DNA of 64,000 nucleotides, from the NCBI GenBank assembly GCA_001468925.1, contig LDIX01000005.1, positions 2,184 through 66,183 of the forward strand, written 5' to 3'. Shown here piece after piece: positions 2,490 to 25,346 of the stretch (position 1 is its first letter; each line of letters begins with the position of its first letter). Below the pieces are notes generated by a model. The model worked only from the letters and a program-made list of their open reading frames with translations, did no database searches and was not told the DNA's origin. The position numbers and the translations under genes were made by a program. The DNA comes from a candidate division TM6 bacterium UASB340 (GTDB lineage Bacteria > Babelota > Babeliae > Babelales > UASB340).

Positions 2490-3722
2490 TTATCCAGCAA
2501 CTTGTTTCAGGCTGTTGGATATATATATTTTATTGGTTTGTTGCTTATTTAGCATTTTTCTTAAATCATCTATTTTATTTATTTGTTCCCAACTTAAATT
2601 TTTTGTACTTTCGCCAAAATGTCCAAATTTTGCGGTTTGCTTATAAATAGGTGTTTTTAAATTTAAATATTCAATTATATCCGCAGGTTTTAATGGAAAA
2701 ATTTCTTTTACAGCAGATTCTATAAAATTATCGTCAATATTGTTTATTAAATTTGTTCCAAAAGTATTAATATAAATAGAAACAGGTTTAGCAACGCCTA
2801 TTGAATAAGCTATTTGAACTTCGCATTTTTCAGCAATTTTTGCAGCAATGATATTTTTTGCAATATGTCTTGCCATATATGCAGCACTTCGGTCTACTTT
2901 GGATGGATCTTTACCCGAAAAACATCCCCCACCATGTCGCCCGGCTCCGCCGTATGTATCTACAATTATTTTGCGTCCCGTAAGCCCAGTATCTCCTTCA
3001 GGTCCGCCTATAACAAATGATCCGGTTGGATTAATAAAAAATTTTGTGTCTTTTGTCAGATATTTTTCACATACCGCATAAATTAATTTTTCTTTTATTT
3101 CTTTTTTAATAAAATCTTGAGAAATTTCTGGGTTGTGTTGAGTTGAAACAATTACATGTGTTACTTCAGTTGGTTTTCCATTTAAATATTTTACAGTTAT
3201 CTGAGCTTTTCCATCCGGTCTTAGCCAAGGCAATATTTTTGATTCTCGCAAATAGGTTAATTTTTGGGTCAGCTTATGAGCCAAATCTATTGGTAAAGGC
3301 ATAAAAGATTCTGTTTCATTACAAGCATATCCAAACATTAGTCCTTGATCGCCGGCACCTTGCTCATGATTTTCTTTTTTATTAATACCAATTGAAATGT
3401 CAGGACTTTGTTTGCTAATGGATGTTATTATTTTGCAGGCATCAATATCAAAGCCATACTCTTTATTTGTATATCCAATTGATTTTAAAGTTTCTATAGC
3501 TATTTCTTTTATATCAACATTACCATTAGAAGTTATTTCTCCGGCTATGACTAATAAATTTTTTGCAATTAAACATTCACATGCAACCCTTGAATTTTTA
3601 TCTTGAGATATATATGCATCCAATATAGCGTCTGAAATTTGATCACATATTTTATCAGGATGCCCAATGGTTACAGATTCAGATGAAAACAGATAATTTT
3701 CATTTAAATTTATTTTGTTCAT
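2490..3722 (-). CDS. metK: S-adenosylmethionine synthetase
   Basis: GHPDKICDQISDAILDA, GAGDQGLMFGYA and GGGCFSGKDPSKVDRSAAY are the canonical MetK motifs, present across the full length. Confidence 0.95.
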   Translation of the reverse strand: MNKINLNENYLFSSESVTIGHPDKICDQISDAILDAYISQDKNSRVACECLIAKNLLVIAGEITSNGNVDIKEIAIETLKSIGYTNKEYGFDIDACKIITSISKQSPDISIGINKKENHEQGAGDQGLMFGYACNETESFMPLPIDLAHKLTQKLTYLRESKILPWLRPDGKAQITVKYLNGKPTEVTHVIVSTQHNPEISQDFIKKEIKEKLIYAVCEKYLTKDTKFFINPTGSFVIGGPEGDTGLTGRKIIVDTYGGAGRHGGGCFSGKDPSKVDRSAAYMARHIAKNIIAAKIAEKCEVQIAYSIGVAKPVSIYINTFGTNLINNIDDNFIESAVKEIFPLKPADIIEYLNLKTPIYKQTAKFGHFGESTKNLSWEQINKIDDLRKMLNKQQTNKIYISNSLKQVAG

Positions 3723-3815
3723 TAATCTACTCTTTCACTTTTTTGTTGATTATTCTTCAAAAATAATAGAACTTTAAAAATAATTGTAAATAATAAATTT
3801 AGTTGAAAGAATTTT

Positions 3816-4412
3816 ATGCAAAAAGAGATAGAGATAAAATTAAAATTGGATAAAACTAATAGCGAAAAATTAAATTTGTGGTTAACTGAAAATGCAAAGT
3901 ATATTAATTCATTGAATATTACAGATTATTATTTTGATAATCCAAAATGTTCGTTTTATTCAATGTCAAAAACTGGATATAAAGAGGCTTTAAATTTTTT
4001 ACGCTTAAGATTATCTGATAAAGATAATTTGATTTGTTTTAAAAAACGTGAAATTGATGATTCTGGAAAAACTTTAAGTGTGGATGAAGTTGAAACTAAA
4101 ATTGATGATGGTTCTAAATTTATTGAAATTTTAAAAAACTCAAGATTTAGTGACGTTATAGAGATAAAAAAAACTCGTGAAATTTTTTTATATAAAAATT
4201 TATTTGAATTCTCAATAGACAAATTTGATAAACACGGTGAATTTATTGAAATTGAACTTAAAAATTATTATGGATCTGTTTTAGATGGAATAGAACAAAT
4301 TTATAATTTATTAAAGGCTATTAAAATTACTAAATTTATTCTATTCGATAGAGGTTATTTGACAATGTTTATTAATCCAAATTATGATTTTGGAAAAAAT
4401 ATAAACTTATAA
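3816..4412 (+). CDS. CYTH-domain protein (class IV adenylate cyclase / triphosphatase family)
   Basis: The N-terminal EIEIKLKL matches the ExExK signature of CYTH domains. The ~200-aa size fits. Confidence 0.55.
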   Translation: MQKEIEIKLKLDKTNSEKLNLWLTENAKYINSLNITDYYFDNPKCSFYSMSKTGYKEALNFLRLRLSDKDNLICFKKREIDDSGKTLSVDEVETKIDDGSKFIEILKNSRFSDVIEIKKTREIFLYKNLFEFSIDKFDKHGEFIEIELKNYYGSVLDGIEQIYNLLKAIKITKFILFDRGYLTMFINPNYDFGKNINL

Positions 4413-4413
4413 A

Positions 4414-5727
4414 TCAATATCCATCAATATGTTCAGGAAGATTGAATTTATCGTCAGATATTACTATGTCTGACCAACCGCATTTGGTATATTTTTCGAA
4501 GTAATATGAAAATATTTCATTAAAATCGTTGTTTGTTTTTGTTAAGTATCCCTGGTTTTTTATGAATGGATCAAGAAATCTAAGTTTAGGTTTTACACAA
4601 ACAAATTTATTTTCAATATTTTCATTATTATTTTTGTAAAAATATTTATCAGGTTTTTCGATTCTTTCTAATAAATCATTAATTTCAGAATCTTTATATG
4701 AATATTTTTTTATTTTTTCCCAGATGGCTGTATCTGTTACTTTAGGTGCAAAGATTAAATCTTCTATAGTTATTACTTTTTTTTCTATAATTTTTTCCAA
4801 AAGTATTGCACCATAATAATTTACTAATTGGCACCAGTAAGAAGCTGCATTTTTCAAATCAAATAGCATTGCCGTGGCACCAAAATTAGTTGCAAGATCC
4901 AGATCATTTTCATTGAATGTCCAATTGCCTTTTTCGTCTATAGTCAAAGATTCTATTATTTTATCTACATCTTCTTTAGTTATGTCTCCGGATAAAAAAC
5001 ATCCTGTTAAAGTATATTCTAAATTATCAGCGCAAATATTTGGCGCTTTTTGTTTAACAACAGGATTGTTTTCAATAAGAATATCTTTTACCTCGATATC
5101 ATATTTTTTAAGAATTTCGGTAATTCCTGTTTTATCAAAAAACCATTCGAATATCATGTCTTGAATAGCTGTTACATTCTTTTCATTTACTATGAATTTA
5201 GACATTTCTGAAATAATTGGGTCATTGTTTAATTGTTTATTACACAAAATATTTCTAATTAAAGCATCTCCCAGATGAGAAAATTTTGTATGCGTTGCAT
5301 CATGTAAAATTGCACTAATAATTTCCTTTAAAGACCGTTGATGATGGCATAAAATTACTGCCATATTTATACTGTGATCACCCCTTGAATAAGATTCTAT
5401 ATTGTATTCATTATTGAAAAGTATATTTTTATGAGAACCATAAACACTAAGCCCATATTGATTTATACTGAATAATCTTTTAATGTACGGGTGACTAATT
5501 ATTTCTATAATTGCTTTTTCATTTGTAAATTTTTTATTAAGATTTACTTTACCATATAATAAACTCTTTATTTCAAGTCCATCATCTGTTTCTTTTATTT
5601 TAACTAATGGTTCGCGATAATCTGAATTACATATTTGACTATTAGCCAAAAGGCTTATATTAATCATAACTGCACAGATAATTACAGAAATAAACAAATA
5701 ATTTAATTTTTTAAAAATTTTGTACAT
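4414..5727 (-). CDS. HD-domain phosphohydrolase with N-terminal membrane anchor/signal
   Basis: RGDHSINMAVI ... AILHDATHTKFSHLGD resembles the H..HD..H.PFSH motif of dNTP-triphosphohydrolase-like HD proteins. The N-terminus is hydrophobic. Confidence 0.6.
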   Translation of the reverse strand: MYKIFKKLNYLFISVIICAVMINISLLANSQICNSDYREPLVKIKETDDGLEIKSLLYGKVNLNKKFTNEKAIIEIISHPYIKRLFSINQYGLSVYGSHKNILFNNEYNIESYSRGDHSINMAVILCHHQRSLKEIISAILHDATHTKFSHLGDALIRNILCNKQLNNDPIISEMSKFIVNEKNVTAIQDMIFEWFFDKTGITEILKKYDIEVKDILIENNPVVKQKAPNICADNLEYTLTGCFLSGDITKEDVDKIIESLTIDEKGNWTFNENDLDLATNFGATAMLFDLKNAASYWCQLVNYYGAILLEKIIEKKVITIEDLIFAPKVTDTAIWEKIKKYSYKDSEINDLLERIEKPDKYFYKNNNENIENKFVCVKPKLRFLDPFIKNQGYLTKTNNDFNEIFSYYFEKYTKCGWSDIVISDDKFNLPEHIDGY

Positions 5728-6471: not shown

Positions 6472-7497
6472 ATGAAATGTATAAATATTGTTTTGTTCAG
6501 TTTATATATTACATCTAATATATATGCTTTAAGCATTTCATATTATTCACTTAAAAATTTTAAAAAAAGTTTGGAAAACGAGGACCGCTTTATTATTAAT
6601 GAAGATTTGGAAAAAAAAATAAATATATATGGTGTTTTTGATGGTCATGGCGGTAGTTTGGTTGCAGAATATTTAAAAGAAAATTTTGTAAATTTTTTTT
6701 TTAAATATTTATTATCAAGTACATTCAAAAAACTAGATATTAATGATATTATTGGTGATTTTTTATTCTCAGATATTAATTATGAATTAGAACAACAAAA
6801 TATTGGCTTTTCTATGGGATCAACAGCTAATATTGTATTTATTATTGATAAAAAAATTTATTTTACTAATGTAGGAGATTCCAGATCTGTGTTATTTGAT
6901 AATAACGATAAAATAATTTTTGCAACAACAGATCAAAAGCCTTCATTGGATTCAATTAGAACGAGAATAATGCTTTTACATGGTGTTAATCTTCGGCATA
7001 CAATTGGTTTTTTTAATAAAGAAGATAATAAAATGAATAAATTTGAAAAATATATTATGTTTAAAGATCAGAGTATTAAAGAGACTTATTATTATGGATT
7101 GGATAAAAAATTATATTCTGAAGAAGATCTTGAATCTAATTTTTCTTTAGAAAATTATGATAAAAGAGAATTTTATCAAATTGGCATAGAAGACTTGAAG
7201 GATCATTTTACATATTTCTCTTTAGATAGTGCATTTGGAGATTTTAATTTTAAGGAATATGGGTTTGATGCCAGTTGTGATGTTACAGAAATAGATTTAA
7301 CAGGAACAGAAAAATATTTAGTTTTAGCTACAGATGGTTTTTGGGATAAAGTTGAAAATTCTAAATGCATAGAGTTAATTAATTTACATTTAATGCTTAA
7401 TACTAATTTTGAAAATTTAGCAGAAAAATTATGTAAATTTGCTAGAAAAAGAGATTCTATAGATGATATTACCGTTTTAGTTATAAAATTTAAATAA
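6472..7497 (+). CDS. PP2C-family Ser/Thr protein phosphatase with N-terminal signal/anchor
   Basis: YGVFDGHGG, TDGFWD and DDITVLVIKF are PP2C signature motifs. The N-terminus is hydrophobic (CINIVLFSLYITSNIYA). Confidence 0.8.
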   Translation: MKCINIVLFSLYITSNIYALSISYYSLKNFKKSLENEDRFIINEDLEKKINIYGVFDGHGGSLVAEYLKENFVNFFFKYLLSSTFKKLDINDIIGDFLFSDINYELEQQNIGFSMGSTANIVFIIDKKIYFTNVGDSRSVLFDNNDKIIFATTDQKPSLDSIRTRIMLLHGVNLRHTIGFFNKEDNKMNKFEKYIMFKDQSIKETYYYGLDKKLYSEEDLESNFSLENYDKREFYQIGIEDLKDHFTYFSLDSAFGDFNFKEYGFDASCDVTEIDLTGTEKYLVLATDGFWDKVENSKCIELINLHLMLNTNFENLAEKLCKFARKRDSIDDITVLVIKFK

Positions 7498-8287
7498 GAT
7501 TATGTTGTCTTTTATTTTTTAAAAAAATGGAGATTAAAAAAATTATACCGCTTGAAATTATTATCATTGGCCCGGCACTAATATTTGTATATTTAAAAAG
7601 TATAATGCCAAGAAAACTTGATATCATTCCTATAAACATTGATAAAAAAGAGTATTGATTAAGCGTATGACTTAAATTTTTACTTGAGCTTGCTGGAATA
7701 GCAATTAATGCTGCTGTCATTAATCCGCCGACTATCCTGATACCAAGGGCAACTGTAATTGCAATACAAGCTAAAAAAATGAAGTTATATTTTTTTATAT
7801 TTATTCCATTAACAATTGCTATGTCTTTTGAAATTGTTATAAGAATTAGTTTTTTGTAAATTTTTTTTATTATTAAAAATATAGAAATTGATACTAATGA
7901 TATGAATATCATACTTTTAAATGTTATTGAAGATATATCACCAATTAAAGCGGTTGCGGTTTTATTTTGTGGCAAGAATAGAAATGATGTGGACATTGTT
8001 ACAGGAAAGACAACGGCTGTTATTGCTTCTATAGATAGTCCTGTTATTTGTTGTAATCCCCAAATTATGATTATTCCAATAATTAAAAATATTAAGGCTC
8101 CAATCGAAACATCAAAATTGTAAAATAAAGCTAATGCTATTCCCGGTAATGCTAAGTGTCCAAGAGCTCCTCCCATTAAAGCCATTTTCTGAGTAACCAT
8201 TATGGAGCCAATATATCCAGATAACCCTCCAATAAATATTCCAATTATTAAGGCTAATATAAAATTTATACTAAACAATAGTTCCAT
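7490..8287 (-). CDS. ABC-3 type metal (Zn/Mn) transporter permease
   Basis: A polytopic membrane protein of ZnuB/MntB size and hydrophobicity pattern. It is almost contiguous with the ATPase gene upstream (3 nt apart), consistent with translational coupling. Confidence 0.7.
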   Translation of the reverse strand: MELLFSINFILALIIGIFIGGLSGYIGSIMVTQKMALMGGALGHLALPGIALALFYNFDVSIGALIFLIIGIIIIWGLQQITGLSIEAITAVVFPVTMSTSFLFLPQNKTATALIGDISSITFKSMIFISLVSISIFLIIKKIYKKLILITISKDIAIVNGINIKKYNFIFLACIAITVALGIRIVGGLMTAALIAIPASSSKNLSHTLNQYSFLSMFIGMISSFLGIILFKYTNISAGPMIIISSGIIFLISIFLKNKRQHNLI

Positions 8288-8289
8288 AC

Positions 8290-8991
8290 TTAACTTTCAT
8301 GATGGTTGTGCTTGTAATATTTTATTTCAGAGCCATAAAGATTTTTTAAATTTTCAGGCGTTAATACCATATCCGGTTTTCCCATGCATAATATTTTTTT
8401 ATTTAAGCATATTACTTTATTTGCATGTTCCCAAACGATACTTAAATCATGCGTAACAAGAATAATTGTTAATTTCCACAAATTCCAAAATTTATGTAAT
8501 AGGGTATATATAGTTTCTTCGCCACCTATGTCGATACCAGAGGTAGGCTCATCAAGTATTAATACTGTTGGCTTATTTATTAAAGCCCAAGCAATCGTCA
8601 TTCTTTGAAATTGACCTGTAGATAATTGATTAAATTGTTTATCTAGTATATTTTCTTTTATTCCCACAGCTTTTAATATTCCATTAATATCTTGGTCATT
8701 TGTATTTTTAAAATGAAAAAAATCTTTTATGCTTAGCGGTGGAAGATCTTTTCTTTCAAAAAATTCTTGAGGGGGTAAGTAACTTATGTGTTGCGTATTC
8801 CAATAAATTTTACCTGTATATGGAATTAATCCAATAATAGCTCTTAGTAGGGTTGACTTACCTGCGCCATTTGGCCCTAAAATTACTAGGACATCTTGTT
8901 TTTTTAGTTCAAATGATAAATTATGTACAATTAAAGAATTGTTTATTTTTACACTAAGATTATCAACTTTTAAAATATCTTCTTTAAACAT
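8290..8991 (-). CDS. ABC transporter ATP-binding protein (ZnuC-like)
   Basis: Walker A GPNGAGKSTLL, signature LSTGQFQR and Walker B LILDEPTSGID. Confidence 0.85.
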   Translation of the reverse strand: MFKEDILKVDNLSVKINNSLIVHNLSFELKKQDVLVILGPNGAGKSTLLRAIIGLIPYTGKIYWNTQHISYLPPQEFFERKDLPPLSIKDFFHFKNTNDQDINGILKAVGIKENILDKQFNQLSTGQFQRMTIAWALINKPTVLILDEPTSGIDIGGEETIYTLLHKFWNLWKLTIILVTHDLSIVWEHANKVICLNKKILCMGKPDMVLTPENLKNLYGSEIKYYKHNHHES

Positions 8992-21712: not shown

Positions 21713-21786
21713 AGAAAGTCCTGTTTAATTGAAACTATAATAATATTTTTAGTCTATTTAAAATCAATTTTTTTACAACAAAAATA

Positions 21787-21804
21787 GCCAGCGTTTACAC
21801 TGGC
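21787..21804 (-). terminator. terminator candidate ending the toxin/immunity operon
   Basis: GCCAG-N8-CTGGC, followed on the minus strand by TATTTTTGTTGT. It lies 34 nt downstream of the stop of the 88-aa gene. Confidence 0.45.
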
Positions 21805-21837
21805 CATTTTCATACATTAAAATAGAGTGTGGGCTAA

Positions 21838-22104
21838 TTATTTCTCTACAAGCTGTTCTAAATCCTTCCAATAACTAGTATCTATTCCATAATAAAGGCA
21901 TTGTTCCTTTATTAATTCGAAAACTTTATGTGAAATTTTAGTATCGAATTCATATATTTGTGTACATAAATCTTCATAAGCCATCATCTTTTCCCCAGCC
22001 ATATAATTTTCTATAAAGTTTTTTATATCAAATTTTCTCATTTTTTTTTCCAAATTATTTATAATAAATTTGGATTTTTCGTCTAATGCATCTTGAGAAA
22101 GCAT
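21838..22104 (-). CDS. MafI-like small immunity protein (putative)
   Basis: 88 aa. The core ENYMAGEKMMAYEDLCTQIYEFDTKISHKVFELIKEQCLYYGIDTSYWKDL fits my recollection of the MafI-family pattern (E.G.A.E.LCdQ.yEyd..Is...y..i......g.d...W..L). It is the last gene of a toxin-like operon. Confidence 0.5.
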   Translation of the reverse strand: MLSQDALDEKSKFIINNLEKKMRKFDIKNFIENYMAGEKMMAYEDLCTQIYEFDTKISHKVFELIKEQCLYYGIDTSYWKDLEQLVEK

Positions 22105-22105
22105 C

Positions 22106-22237
22106 TTAGTCCTTTTTAAAATTTAATTTTTTAATATTAAATGAAACTTGTGGTCCATTCAATGGATAACCTTTAACTATATCAACACTTGCTGGTTCTG
22201 GATTTTCGCTAATAATTTCAAGCGCTTCCTCAACCAA
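22106..22237 (-). pseudogene. orphan fragment homologous to the pre-CT junction of the upstream toxin gene
   Basis: The frame has no ATG (a TTG is possible at 22237). It reads (L)VEEALEIISENPEPASVDIVKGYPLNG..., compared with toxin residues VEEALETISQNPELAKIEKNLYKNVDIVVKEG. At the DNA level, 22192-22234 versus 23231-23273 gives 35/43 identical by my hand alignment. The stop lies 1 nt before the next ATG. Confidence 0.4.
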
Positions 22238-22247
22238 ATCAGTATAT

Positions 22248-22763
22248 TTATGATGATTGTTGATTTATTTTTAGATTTTCAATTTCTTCTGCTGATAAGT
22301 CTTTAACTTCAATTAAACAAAGTGCTTTTTTTTCATTAAAGCCAAAAATTACTCTTTCATTAGCAACTTTTAAATTTATTTTGTCATTTGAAAAGATAAT
22401 AAAAAGATTATTGTTTGAAAGAATTGCCTCAAAATTTATTGGCTCTTCAACAACAAATTGGTTGCCATATTTTTTTACATCAAATACAGGTGATCCATTT
22501 TTTGTATTTGCATTTTTATCACATGCTGAATATTGTTGAATAACCTTAATTTTTGGAAGTAAGGTCATAGTTATTGATTTAATAAATCCACTTTCTTGCT
22601 CCAATAATAATTCGAGTAAAGTTTTTCCCATGTAACCAGTCTTCCAATACATAGATGGAGACCAATTTATAGGATTGAAGTAAAAATCTATATCTATTGG
22701 GATATAATAATCAGATTTTACATTTATTTGAGTAACATTTTTAATAGTTTTTAATTTCAACAT
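22248..22763 (-). CDS. putative cognate immunity protein
   Basis: A 171-aa cytoplasmic-looking ORF beginning 30 nt after the toxin stop, with its own AAGGAA RBS. The call rests on position only. I do not recognise the family. Confidence 0.45.
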   Translation of the reverse strand: MLKLKTIKNVTQINVKSDYYIPIDIDFYFNPINWSPSMYWKTGYMGKTLLELLLEQESGFIKSITMTLLPKIKVIQQYSACDKNANTKNGSPVFDVKKYGNQFVVEEPINFEAILSNNNLFIIFSNDKINLKVANERVIFGFNEKKALCLIEVKDLSAEEIENLKINQQSS

Positions 22764-22793: not shown

Positions 22794-25346
22794 TTACGGC
22801 CTATAAATAGCATGCTTTACAACAGACAATAATCCATTTTCTCTAGGTGGACTAAATACAAAACCCCATTGGCCTATCACAATTTCATCGCCATAGATAA
22901 GCCCAAATTTTGAAGCTTTATTAATAGCTGCATGAAAACTTTTTAATATTATTTGGCTTTCAATTGATAAACTGTGTCGTGCTGGAAGTCTATCTAAATA
23001 CTCTTTCATATGTTTCGTTGCATTTGGAGCAATCCATAATTCAATATCATTAACTTTAAGTCTAAATGATCTTGGAATTTTTGTTCCAGGATACATCTCA
23101 TCTGTTGCCTCTATATAATCCCATACTGTAGAAGTTTTTTTAATTACTTGGGATATTTTTTCTTTATTATTTCGTACCCCTTCTTTAACAACTATATCAA
23201 CATTTTTATATAGATTTTTTTCTATTTTTGCTAGTTCTGGATTTTGGCTTATTGTCTCAAGAGCTTCTTCAACTTTTTCAACACCATGTTTTTCGGCAAT
23301 TCCGACAACATTTGAACCTTCAACAAAACTTTTAGCAACAGGCATTACAGCTTTTTTAAGGCAATCAGTTTTTTCATTAATTTCATTAAGCACTTTGCAT
23401 GTAGCAACTTCAGTTTTAACCAAACTTGCAACATTTTTGAAATATCCTTTAAGTCCTTTTGCAACGCCCAAGGCTTTGCCTTGTACAATATTATCTAAAA
23501 AAAATCCTACTGAAACTTCTACGGATTTTGATATTTTTTCTTCATATGGCAATTGTGAAAAATTTTTTATTTTTTTAATAGCTAACTTTTTAAATGTATC
23601 TGTATTGGTCAATGTCATATAACCAAACTGACCTAAATCCAAAAAAAGTTTTGCCATAGCAATTTGAGGCGCTGTAACAATCACAGCACTATATCCAACA
23701 TCTTTTAAAACTAAAGTTGGATTTTCTTTATATCTTCCTACAAAATTTTTACCACTATTAACAGTTCCATCACCAATAGCATTTAAAATATTGTAAGTTA
23801 TTTTTGTTGCATTTAATAAAGAGGTTGAAAGGTCTGTAGCATCTTTTGCAATAACGGTTTGATTTTCATTGCAAAATGTCATGGCTAAATCCAAGCCCTG
23901 ATTTACAACTTCACATGTATGAAGAGCATAATCTTTGGCATGATCGGTTAAGAAGTGTTTTTGTTCGAATGGATCTTCTTGAGTTACTTGTTTATAAAAA
24001 TCATTAACTTCTTGTTCAGCCCAAATTATATTGTTTTTAAGATTTTTTTGATCCATATCAATTTCGGAATCTATTTTTTGGAATAAATCTTGTGGCGCAA
24101 TTTTTTCATTTATTGAATTTTTAGAAGAATTGAATTGTTCTGATAAGTTAGATGAATAAATTGATTTTTCAGTTTCATCCAGTTTTTTATTGTTATCAGA
24201 AGAGCTTTGTGAATATTTTCTAAAGAAATTTTTTCCAGATTCAAATAGGTTCTGAGAAGGATACCCATTTATTGACGTTGCAATATTTCTTGAATTAGCC
24301 AAAAATCTTCTTGTTGTATTACTTAAATGAATTCCAACCGTTTTGGGTTCTTCTATTGGTTCAGATTCATAAACAAATACATCCGTTTCATTTGGTTTTA
24401 AATCTGTTAATTCAGTTTCAAGTGTAGTTACATTTGGAATCCCTATGTCCTCATTTTCACTCAATATTATAGTATCAATATAATCATTTTCCATTTTCAT
24501 AGGTATTTGTTGCTCTGGCTCAATATTTATTTCTGTGTCTTGGATATTTGTATCCTGAATCGTCACGTTTTCTATTGACATATCATCAATTGTAGAAAAA
24601 TTAACACTAGTATTTTTAGAATTGATTGGAGTTAAATTTTCTATTGGTTCATTAATTATGATACCTTCAAATTTAGGTAATTCAGGTTTACTTTTTTTTA
24701 TTTCTTCGAATTTATTTATAATATTAAGAGGTTCTGGAATAGTTAATTTTTCTGTATTTAAAATTTCACGTTTTTGTGTTTCTTGTTGTTTTATATTTTT
24801 AATTTTCTTTTTAAATATATCTATTTCACACTCAACTTTTTTTTCAATTGCTGTTCTTGGCCTACCAAAAATTTGAATATCCAAGTGTTTTTTGAGCCAT
24901 TTTCTAGGTGTAACCAAGGTACTCCTTTTAACTGTTTTGTTATTTGAAAGTTTCGCTTTAGTTAAACACACCGTATTACGCCATTCATCAGAATTTTGAA
25001 GTTTATCTTTATACAATTTTAAATTTTCTAATGATTTTTCTAGTTCACTTAAAGAACCATTTTCCAAAATATTTGATATATTATTTTGAAAATTTTTGTA
25101 GTTAGCTATCGTTGCCGTTGATGATAATTTATCAAAAAAATTTAAATAACATTTAGTTTTTTCTGAGGTTTGATAATTTGGATTTATATTTGTACTATCA
25201 AAGCAATTATCGCTCAATTGAAAGAATTTAGTTTCTAAACGATAATCTCCCGTTTTAGAATTAAAACTAATTTTGTCCATGCAATTACCATTTTCGAAAA
25301 ATGTGATCATAAAAATTAATATAAGATTTTTTAAAAACTTCTTCAT
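22794..25346 (-). CDS. large secreted polymorphic-toxin-like protein
   Basis: 850 aa with a signal peptide, a long low-complexity/acidic N-terminal half, a hydrophobic/Gly-rich central part, and a discrete C-terminal module of about 145 aa (…IPRSFRLKVNDIELWIAPNATKHMKEYL…). Small immunity-like genes follow it. I do not recognise the catalytic family of the C-terminal module. Confidence 0.5.
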   Translation of the reverse strand: MKKFLKNLILIFMITFFENGNCMDKISFNSKTGDYRLETKFFQLSDNCFDSTNINPNYQTSEKTKCYLNFFDKLSSTATIANYKNFQNNISNILENGSLSELEKSLENLKLYKDKLQNSDEWRNTVCLTKAKLSNNKTVKRSTLVTPRKWLKKHLDIQIFGRPRTAIEKKVECEIDIFKKKIKNIKQQETQKREILNTEKLTIPEPLNIINKFEEIKKSKPELPKFEGIIINEPIENLTPINSKNTSVNFSTIDDMSIENVTIQDTNIQDTEINIEPEQQIPMKMENDYIDTIILSENEDIGIPNVTTLETELTDLKPNETDVFVYESEPIEEPKTVGIHLSNTTRRFLANSRNIATSINGYPSQNLFESGKNFFRKYSQSSSDNNKKLDETEKSIYSSNLSEQFNSSKNSINEKIAPQDLFQKIDSEIDMDQKNLKNNIIWAEQEVNDFYKQVTQEDPFEQKHFLTDHAKDYALHTCEVVNQGLDLAMTFCNENQTVIAKDATDLSTSLLNATKITYNILNAIGDGTVNSGKNFVGRYKENPTLVLKDVGYSAVIVTAPQIAMAKLFLDLGQFGYMTLTNTDTFKKLAIKKIKNFSQLPYEEKISKSVEVSVGFFLDNIVQGKALGVAKGLKGYFKNVASLVKTEVATCKVLNEINEKTDCLKKAVMPVAKSFVEGSNVVGIAEKHGVEKVEEALETISQNPELAKIEKNLYKNVDIVVKEGVRNNKEKISQVIKKTSTVWDYIEATDEMYPGTKIPRSFRLKVNDIELWIAPNATKHMKEYLDRLPARHSLSIESQIILKSFHAAINKASKFGLIYGDEIVIGQWGFVFSPPRENGLLSVVKHAIYRP

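Follow-up and report, generated by a model that had tools for sequence, protein, structure and literature searches.

How did a stretch of toxin-like sequence come to lie between two immunity-like genes, with no toxin domain attached to it? The question is raised by a locus of the candidate division TM6 bacterium UASB340, contained in a 64,000-nucleotide (nt) stretch of contig LDIX01000005.1 (assembly GCA_001468925.1; G+C content 28%) that we refer to as the window. Read along the minus strand, the locus consists of the gene for a full-length polymorphic toxin of 850 amino acids (aa) at 25346-22794, a 171-aa homologue of the immunity gene cdiI (22763-22248), a gap of 143 nt (22247-22105) that is largely occupied by the fragment of interest (22237-22106), and an 88-aa gene resembling the MafI immunity family (22104-21838). 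An earlier note on this DNA argued that the gap is not a random spacer; it extends from the stop codon of the 171-aa gene (22248-22250) to the ATG with which the 88-aa gene starts (22102-22104). Indeed, it holds a significant, in-frame repeat of the junction that precedes the C-terminal (CT) domain of the toxin. In our estimate, there are about three chances in four that a second, or "orphan", toxin cassette has left its vestige in the spacer, with the toxin lost and the immunity gene kept.

The spacer carries a second copy of the toxin junction

On the minus strand, the gap is open and reads (L)VEEALEIISENPEPASVDIVKGYPLNGPQVSFNIKKLNFKKD*, as the earlier note described it. Two further statements of that note also hold: the fragment has no ATG, and its TAA stop (22106-22108) is 1 nt away from the ATG of the MafI-like gene. 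The TTG codon at 22237 is not preceded by a Shine-Dalgarno sequence, and there is an in-frame stop just upstream.

The top direct repeat found by a repeat search of the region joins this fragment to the toxin gene: positions 22189-22234 and 23228-23273 are identical at 38 of 46 nt (83%), and the 35/43 identities counted by hand in the earlier note (22192-22234 versus 23231-23273) represent the same block minus three matching bases at its end. The two copies are direct repeats on the same strand and in the same reading frame, 1039 nt apart, and their longest exact run is 12 nt. In the full-length toxin, the junction spans residues 692-723 (VEEALETISQNPELAKIEKNLYKNVDIVVKEG; 23178-23273). Block 1 of the orphan copy (VEEALEIISENPEPA; 22190-22234) is homologous to residues 692-706, and its 15 aligned codons include eight identical, four synonymously changed and three non-synonymously changed ones. 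Following an in-frame gap of eight codons, gapped alignments of both DNA and protein match block 2 (SVDIVKG; 22169-22189) to residues 715-723 (NVDIVVKEG), with two single-codon gaps within the block (SVDIV-K-G). Homology thus begins 13 nt past the stop codon of cdiI and ends at the boundary between the conserved and variable parts of the toxin; about 67 nt, or 22 junction codons, survive. These are followed by a tail of 20 codons (YPLNGPQVSFNIKKLNFKKD) and the TAA stop (22106-22168), which would be the remainder of the orphan's toxin part, and which contains AAGGA, the ribosome-binding site of the 88-aa gene. The tail may faintly continue the linker.

The complete arrangement, along the minus strand, is the toxin N-terminus with its junction, the tRNase domain, cdiI, 13 nt, the second junction with 20 codons and a stop, the mafI-like gene and a terminator-like hairpin. 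The hairpin, with its U-run (21775-21812; hairpin proper 21787-21804; folding energy -23.4 kcal/mol, z -4.7), closes the unit, and from the toxin gene as far as the 88-aa gene we found no terminator-like site.

Since the frame is open for 43 codons, from the TTG at 22237 to the TAA at 22106, and stops 1 nt before the next ATG, one might think of a functional leader that is translationally coupled to the 88-aa gene. Such a leader is highly improbable: nothing similar to a Shine-Dalgarno sequence precedes the TTG, related loci have no homologous small open reading frame (ORF), the homology to the toxin accounts for the sequence, and the 88-aa gene is equipped with a ribosome-binding site of its own.

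Significance of the repeat

The similarity might also be an accident of A/T-rich DNA, and we compared it with 2602 real 143-nt tiles taken from the rest of the window on both strands. With near-ungapped scoring, the core of the fragment reaches 52 against the toxin gene, whereas the best of the other tiles reaches 37 (mean 23.9, standard deviation 3.2). The observed score was attained by none of 2000 dinucleotide shuffles, and the gapped BLOSUM62 score of 70 by none of 3000 shuffled proteins. When the fragment was compared to the whole window by tblastn, it matched the toxin junction (E-value 6e-4) and nothing else. The formal alignment and shuffling that the earlier note had recommended return a significant match. 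What speaks for coincidence is that under permissive gap penalties A/T-rich real tiles score similarly, the fragment ranking fourth of 1726; as the gapped DNA score is unexceptional against real A/T-rich sequence, significance rests on the ungapped core and on context. The context is that of a block on the same strand, in frame and at the predicted position, and its G+C content of 41% in a window of 28% means that it is not low-complexity A/T sequence. On the tile and shuffle controls we reject chance similarity, to which we give next to no probability.

A hidden Markov model (HMM) of the junction built from relatives only, with no window sequence in it, does not detect the fragment (E-value 2.9); the similarity is specific to the toxin gene of this genome. 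The differences between the two copies fall in third codon positions in five of eight cases, a bias that is only suggestive (binomial p about 0.09).

The junction lies at the boundary of the variable domain

An exhaustive HMMER search that took residues 561-850 of the toxin as its query produced 561 hits, most of which align only from about residues 725-738 onward; in these proteins, the CT domain is attached to unrelated N-termini of 120 to 3400 aa. One match behaves in the opposite way: the 890-aa protein P0137 aligns over toxin residues 562-723 and then continues into a different CT domain. By tblastn, the homology of P0137, in locus L001, to the window toxin covers toxin residues 73-720 (E-value 4e-55) and ends at residue 720. 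The nuclease domain of the window toxin starts about five residues past the junction. In these alignments, residues 692-723 form the final conserved segment ahead of the variable domain, and the counterpart of the spacer fragment sits where the C-terminal module begins, exactly where the earlier note had put it.

The toxin and its CdiI partner

The 850-aa ORF (22794-25346) opens with a signal-peptide-like N-terminus; a region of low complexity, a pre-toxin domain made of helices and the junction come next, and last is a tRNase CT domain. The latter, the last 122 residues (728-849; 22800-23165), matches PDB entry 7VMC_B, the CT domain of CdiA from E. coli EC869, with a phmmer E-value of 2.1e-25. 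[quoted passage not shown] The histidines in the NATKHM and KHAIY motifs of the window toxin align with two histidines of the solved 7VMC chain; by a hand-counted offset for a 21-residue tag, these are His216 and His281, and both are conserved.

The 171-aa protein (22248-22763), in turn, matches 7VMC_C, the CdiI of the same complex (phmmer E-value 2.9e-8), and is 42% identical to the immunity protein of a related locus, L003, described below (E-value 2e-42). It has no match in PADLOC, Pfam or NCBIfam; the same is true of the whole 850-aa toxin, its N-terminus and pre-CT region included. A scan of species-representative genomes located the CT domain in 80 loci, including ones from Bacillota, Enterobacterales, Actinomycetota, Elusimicrobiota and three metagenome-assembled genomes (MAGs) of Candidatus Dependentiae. 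When these 80 loci are taken together with the other loci collected, 57 stretches have a homologue of the 171-aa protein encoded immediately downstream of the CT domain. Homology and gene order together indicate that the 850-aa toxin and the 171-aa protein are a genuine cognate toxin-immunity pair of the tRNase type.

A probable orphan immunity gene similar to MafI

The 88-aa gene (21838-22104) is intact, with its ribosome-binding site inside the fragment. Its product aligns to model positions 4-61 of 67 of the MafI family NF033691 of NCBIfam with an E-value of 5.7e-7 and 29.3 bits, just below the curated cut-off of 31 bits, in agreement with the MafI-like assignment of the earlier note. In 72,556 plasmids, the sole tblastn match was a Rhizobium gene annotated "MafI family immunity protein" by the Prokaryotic Genome Annotation Pipeline (PGAP); the E-value is 0.1 at the level of the database, and 1e-9 in pairwise comparison, with 32% identity over 62 aa. 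The single-sequence AlphaFold2 (AF2) model of the 88-aa protein consists of five helices (mean predicted local distance difference test score, pLDDT, 70.6).

We considered the possibility that the 88-aa gene is a conserved third component of the tRNase module, and rejected it. Homologues are absent from all other tRNase/CdiI loci examined, so the gene is not a component of that module. Small genes that trail cdiI in loci L005 and L016 are unrelated to the 88-aa gene and to each other. These genes (L005, 6405-6746, 113 aa; L016, 9012-9344, 110 aa) have no junction remnant in front of them, and may be further stranded immunity genes.

The cognate toxin of the MafI family was sought in the Rhizobium and Proteus loci, where the MafI genes turned out to be orphans or to stand beside an uninformative 312-aa protein. 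The Rhizobium gene is stranded among insertion-sequence fragments at the 3' tail of a haemagglutinin-repeat locus of the contact-dependent inhibition (CDI) type, and the homologue in Proteus is a lone gene that has no toxin ORF beside it. On the Rhizobium hidalgonense plasmid (L009; 5229-5357 and 5974-6225), a truncated duplicate of the 5' end of the MafI gene (MRCGGIEIEKRLI...) is found about 600 nt upstream. The 88-aa gene of the window is a probable stand-alone orphan immunity gene. It also contains one half of a second short direct repeat, 22041-22066 versus 24698-24723 in the N-terminal region of the toxin (26 nt, 85%); this match is A/T-rich and is probably due to chance.

Relatives exchange CT domains at the same junction

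The closest relatives of the toxin family are found in Dependentiae genomes, and, in the loci compared, the junction motif occurs only in this Dependentiae-type family. In locus L003 (WJIY01000022.1, Candidatus Dependentiae Bin_496), the 3' end of a toxin gene carries the junction VIGMKAYLEYGAQDATKILNSIKNNPSLLKQTDKTLIEIVQEIGNGL and a CT domain of the Pfam CdiA_C family (PF18451). Next come two small genes, one of them a weak match to WapI, and then an orphan ORF in which the junction recurs (91% identity over 143 nt, with an exact run of 28 nt; 87% over 47 aa) and leads into an EC869-type tRNase; a gene for a CdiI homologue follows this ORF. Locus L004 has the equivalent layout. The L003 contig (2951 bp) has identical ends of 100 nt (1-100 and 2852-2951), and the toxin that starts at its right end (MAKVEGLEHG...) continues into the left end, suggesting either a circular-looking assembly or a collapsed pair of tandem toxin paralogues like those of L016.

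In the latter locus, on a 1.2-Mb Dependentiae contig, two tandem paralogues with signal peptides (3690-5507 and 6588-8426) are 72% identical up to about residue 479, and diverge just past '...KN[NS]PL...YLTTPEGLLFK'. One has an Ntox17-like and the other a tRNase CT domain, each with an immunity gene of its own; Ntox17 is assigned by way of L002, where the CT domain matches PF15524. In the window, L003 and L016, the switch occurs about 17-20 residues past the NPxL motif. Thus, different CT domains are found on the same junction in L001 (P0137), L002, L003, L004 and L016, and CT domains of at least four types are associated with the pre-CT family: the tRNase, CdiA_C (PF18451), Ntox17 (PF15524) and one that is unannotated. 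The earlier note had regarded the lack of any genome with alternative CT domains at this junction as fatal to its proposal; such genomes exist.

In another Dependentiae MAG (L012, 10251-12601), a 221-aa ORF and three paralogous genes (120, 133 and 141 aa) lie downstream of a tRNase/CdiI pair, an arrangement suggestive of an orphan toxin and an array of immunity genes.

Origin of the fragment

The fragment has most of the attributes of an orphan module. It shares the strand of a full-length toxin-immunity pair and is placed downstream of that pair, shows pre-CT homology, lacks a start codon and a trafficking domain, is directly followed by an immunity gene, and has a junction that is shared by relatives. 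What comes after the homology block is only 20 codons and not an alternative CT toxin domain; as this domain is missing, we class the feature as the vestige of an orphan module rather than as a module. Having neither an ATG nor a toxin domain, the stub makes no toxin. The claim of the earlier note that the orphan toxin part is almost entirely deleted while its immunity gene is retained agrees with the 20 unmatched codons and the intact 88-aa gene.

We infer the following history. A cassette made of junction, EC869-type tRNase domain and cdiI would have recombined into the resident gene at the junction, while its far end was joined illegitimately, so that the resident junction, the old CT domain and its MafI-type immunity gene would have been displaced downstream. 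The process would amount to C-terminal displacement by homology-facilitated illegitimate recombination. Later, the displaced toxin-coding part would have been deleted down to 22 junction codons and the 20-codon tail, while the MafI-type immunity gene stayed intact. Located inside the sole terminator-bounded unit, the 88-aa gene probably shares a transcript with the toxin-cdiI operon, and would probably protect the cell against neighbours that still deploy the lost type of toxin. The third-position bias, the in-frame indels and the stop of homology at the variable boundary fit descent from a once-coding, diverged allele.

The most serious competitor of a vestigial cassette is a local duplication of the resident junction, for example a slippage or repair scar, that happened to arise beside an unrelated small gene and never belonged to a second cassette. 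It would be compatible with the shortness of the homology, only about 67 nt, and it gains from several observations that at the same time weigh against the preferred reading. The family-only profile does not recognize the fragment, and there is no compositional difference: no shift in G+C content marks a recent transfer. The tail is devoid of toxin similarity. Specifically, when the last 26 residues of the fragment (VDIVKG and the 20 of the tail) were compared with all segments of 90 loci and with 151 proteins, nothing beyond the window matched them significantly; with the tail matching no toxin, the identity of the lost CT domain is not recoverable. Nor is the neighbour tied to a lost toxin by comparative evidence. 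We looked, as the earlier note had advised, for a related genome in which a full toxin with this junction precedes a homologue of the 88-aa gene, and found none, so that the cognate link between the 88-aa gene and the lost toxin is not demonstrated. Its score below the NCBIfam cut-off makes the 88-aa protein MafI-like and not a certified member of the family; the AF2 model has no Foldseek match in the PDB with an E-value of 0.001 or lower, and a word-indexed search of 5.8 billion protein clusters yielded no homologue. A separate, once-functional allele is not proven over local duplication followed by decay.

Against a duplication stand the nature and place of the neighbour, a MafI-like gene that begins 1 nt past the stop of the fragment and has its ribosome-binding site within it; the end of the homology at the conserved/variable boundary, as expected of a cassette with another CT domain; the concentration of differences in third codon positions and the in-frame indels; and the complete orphan modules of the same layout in relatives. 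On balance, we regard local duplication as unlikely, though it is better placed than the other alternatives.

A vestige of a cassette need not be inert, and the earlier note took the junction block to be a recombination handle. This is upheld for the class of sequence, and does not carry over to the copy at hand. If the fragment were a usable handle, recombination between the direct repeats would switch the C-terminus of the toxin. The repeats are indeed direct, in frame and located at the boundary of exchange, and the intact module of L003 keeps 143 nt at 91% identity, including the 28-nt exact run. In the window, on the other hand, the longest exact identity is 12 nt, within a 46-nt block at 83%. 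Efficient recombination by RecA usually needs roughly 20-30 nt of identity, and 12 nt is far below this length. Moreover, no toxin domain is left to be swapped in: in the sole product, the toxin would be fused to the 20-residue tail, with the tRNase domain and cdiI both gone, which would leave the cell disarmed and sensitive to its siblings. In a passage of PMC4287609, recombination of orphan cassettes is cited as reported for Rhs and for Neisseria cdiA, and for mafB as supported by genome comparison. Even so, the stub appears to be too short and too diverged for an efficient handle, and we consider a function of this kind quite improbable, less probable than a local duplication.

A toxin family of Dependentiae

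Genes of the toxin family have two companions, one for a pentapeptide-repeat protein that is secreted and the other for a small membrane-like protein of some 200-250 aa, a neighbourhood that is conserved in three loci of about 28% G+C: the window (26897-25422, 25346-22794, 21712-21035 and 20735-19992), L001 (123-1370, 1384-4056 and 5196-5813) and L005 (1419-2426, 2448-3026 and 3056-5854). The window has two paralogues of the small membrane-like protein, similar to each other with an E-value of 1e-12. The conserved neighbours may be a delivery or accessory set for the toxin family.

We tentatively suggest, with somewhat less than even confidence, that the toxin belongs to an undescribed, Sec-dependent polymorphic family of Candidatus Dependentiae MAGs and low-G+C contigs, whose N-terminal and pre-toxin parts have no Pfam or NCBIfam model, whose neighbours possibly form a new delivery system, and whose CT domains are exchanged about 17-20 residues past '...[IV]xxNPxL...', the fragment in the window being a scar of such an exchange. 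Relatives were not easily collected: an initial genome scan with patterns from the toxin and P0137 found none, and word-indexed searches with the full 850-aa toxin, the 88-aa protein or the pre-CT alignment returned only the query itself or nothing, probably because A/T-rich low-complexity words swamped the candidates. We found no publication that links Dependentiae with polymorphic toxins, and none on the accessions of the relatives.

Textbook accounts of CDI, Rhs, Maf and type VI or type VII secretion system (T6SS/T7SS) loci already include orphan toxin cassettes, CT fragments that are silent and immunity genes left stranded. The phenomenon is well known, and the fragment adds nothing conceptually new to it; what is new is the lineage of the host and a toxin family that lacks annotation. 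The fragment pins down the exchange boundary of that family, points to C-terminal displacement also operating in these low-G+C, probably Dependentiae, genomes, and marks the 88-aa gene as probably a stand-alone immunity gene. More interesting as a lead is the family at large, in which a Sec signal and an unannotated pre-toxin domain go together with four or more CT types and with the conserved neighbours, the pentapeptide-repeat and membrane proteins.

Comparison with known systems

C-terminal displacement in rhs genes was reportedly described by Jackson et al. in 2009. The history proposed here is the same as for rhs and for the T6SS clusters of Vibrio cholerae: a module comes in, the old 3' region ends up downstream, the effector is lost and the immunity gene is kept. 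The window differs from these systems in having no Rhs/YD repeats, no T6SS genes, and a single orphan instead of an array. In V. cholerae, sequential displacement of effectors leaves arrays of orphan immunity genes (PMC5361080), and a displacement mechanism has been proposed both for these effector-immunity modules (PMC5361080) and for mafB-CT cassettes (PMC4287609).

At the level of the CT domain, the toxin and its immunity protein are homologous to CdiA-CT/CdiI EC869 (7VMC; PMC9071432) and preserve the catalytic histidines, although the solved CdiA-CT chain of 306 residues has about 185 residues ahead of the nuclease domain, unlike the window toxin. The LXG/T7SS and Rhs toxins of Bacillota and Enterobacterales (loci L011-L089) share the same CT domain with an adjacent CdiI-like gene, and their N-terminal trafficking domains are unrelated to the window toxin.

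At the level of the locus, the main pair followed by a 5'-truncated element that starts with pre-CT homology recalls the orphan cdiA-CT/cdiI modules (PMC3150448). The toxin itself is unlike CdiA: at 850 aa and with a Sec-type signal, it has no haemagglutinin or filamentous haemagglutinin (FHA) repeats (no Pfam or NCBIfam match) and no VENN motif, there is no CdiB, and its neighbours are the pentapeptide-repeat protein and small membrane proteins.

The closest analogue of the fragment is provided by the silent mafB-CT/mafI cassettes in the maf genomic islands of Neisseria (PMC4287609). Those of class 3 MafB have no start codon, keep a conserved junction motif, and are followed by mafI (PMC4287609). 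As in the maf system, the window toxin carries a signal peptide and combines an N-terminal part that is conserved with a CT domain that varies, and a downstream fragment without a start codon keeps the junction and precedes a small immunity gene. In contrast to MafB, the window toxin lacks DUF1020 (no Pfam match) and the junction motifs VSGDF, VKYDT and DWVKN; and in contrast to the Neisseria cassettes, the one in the window has lost its toxin domain and resides in a host of 28% G+C.

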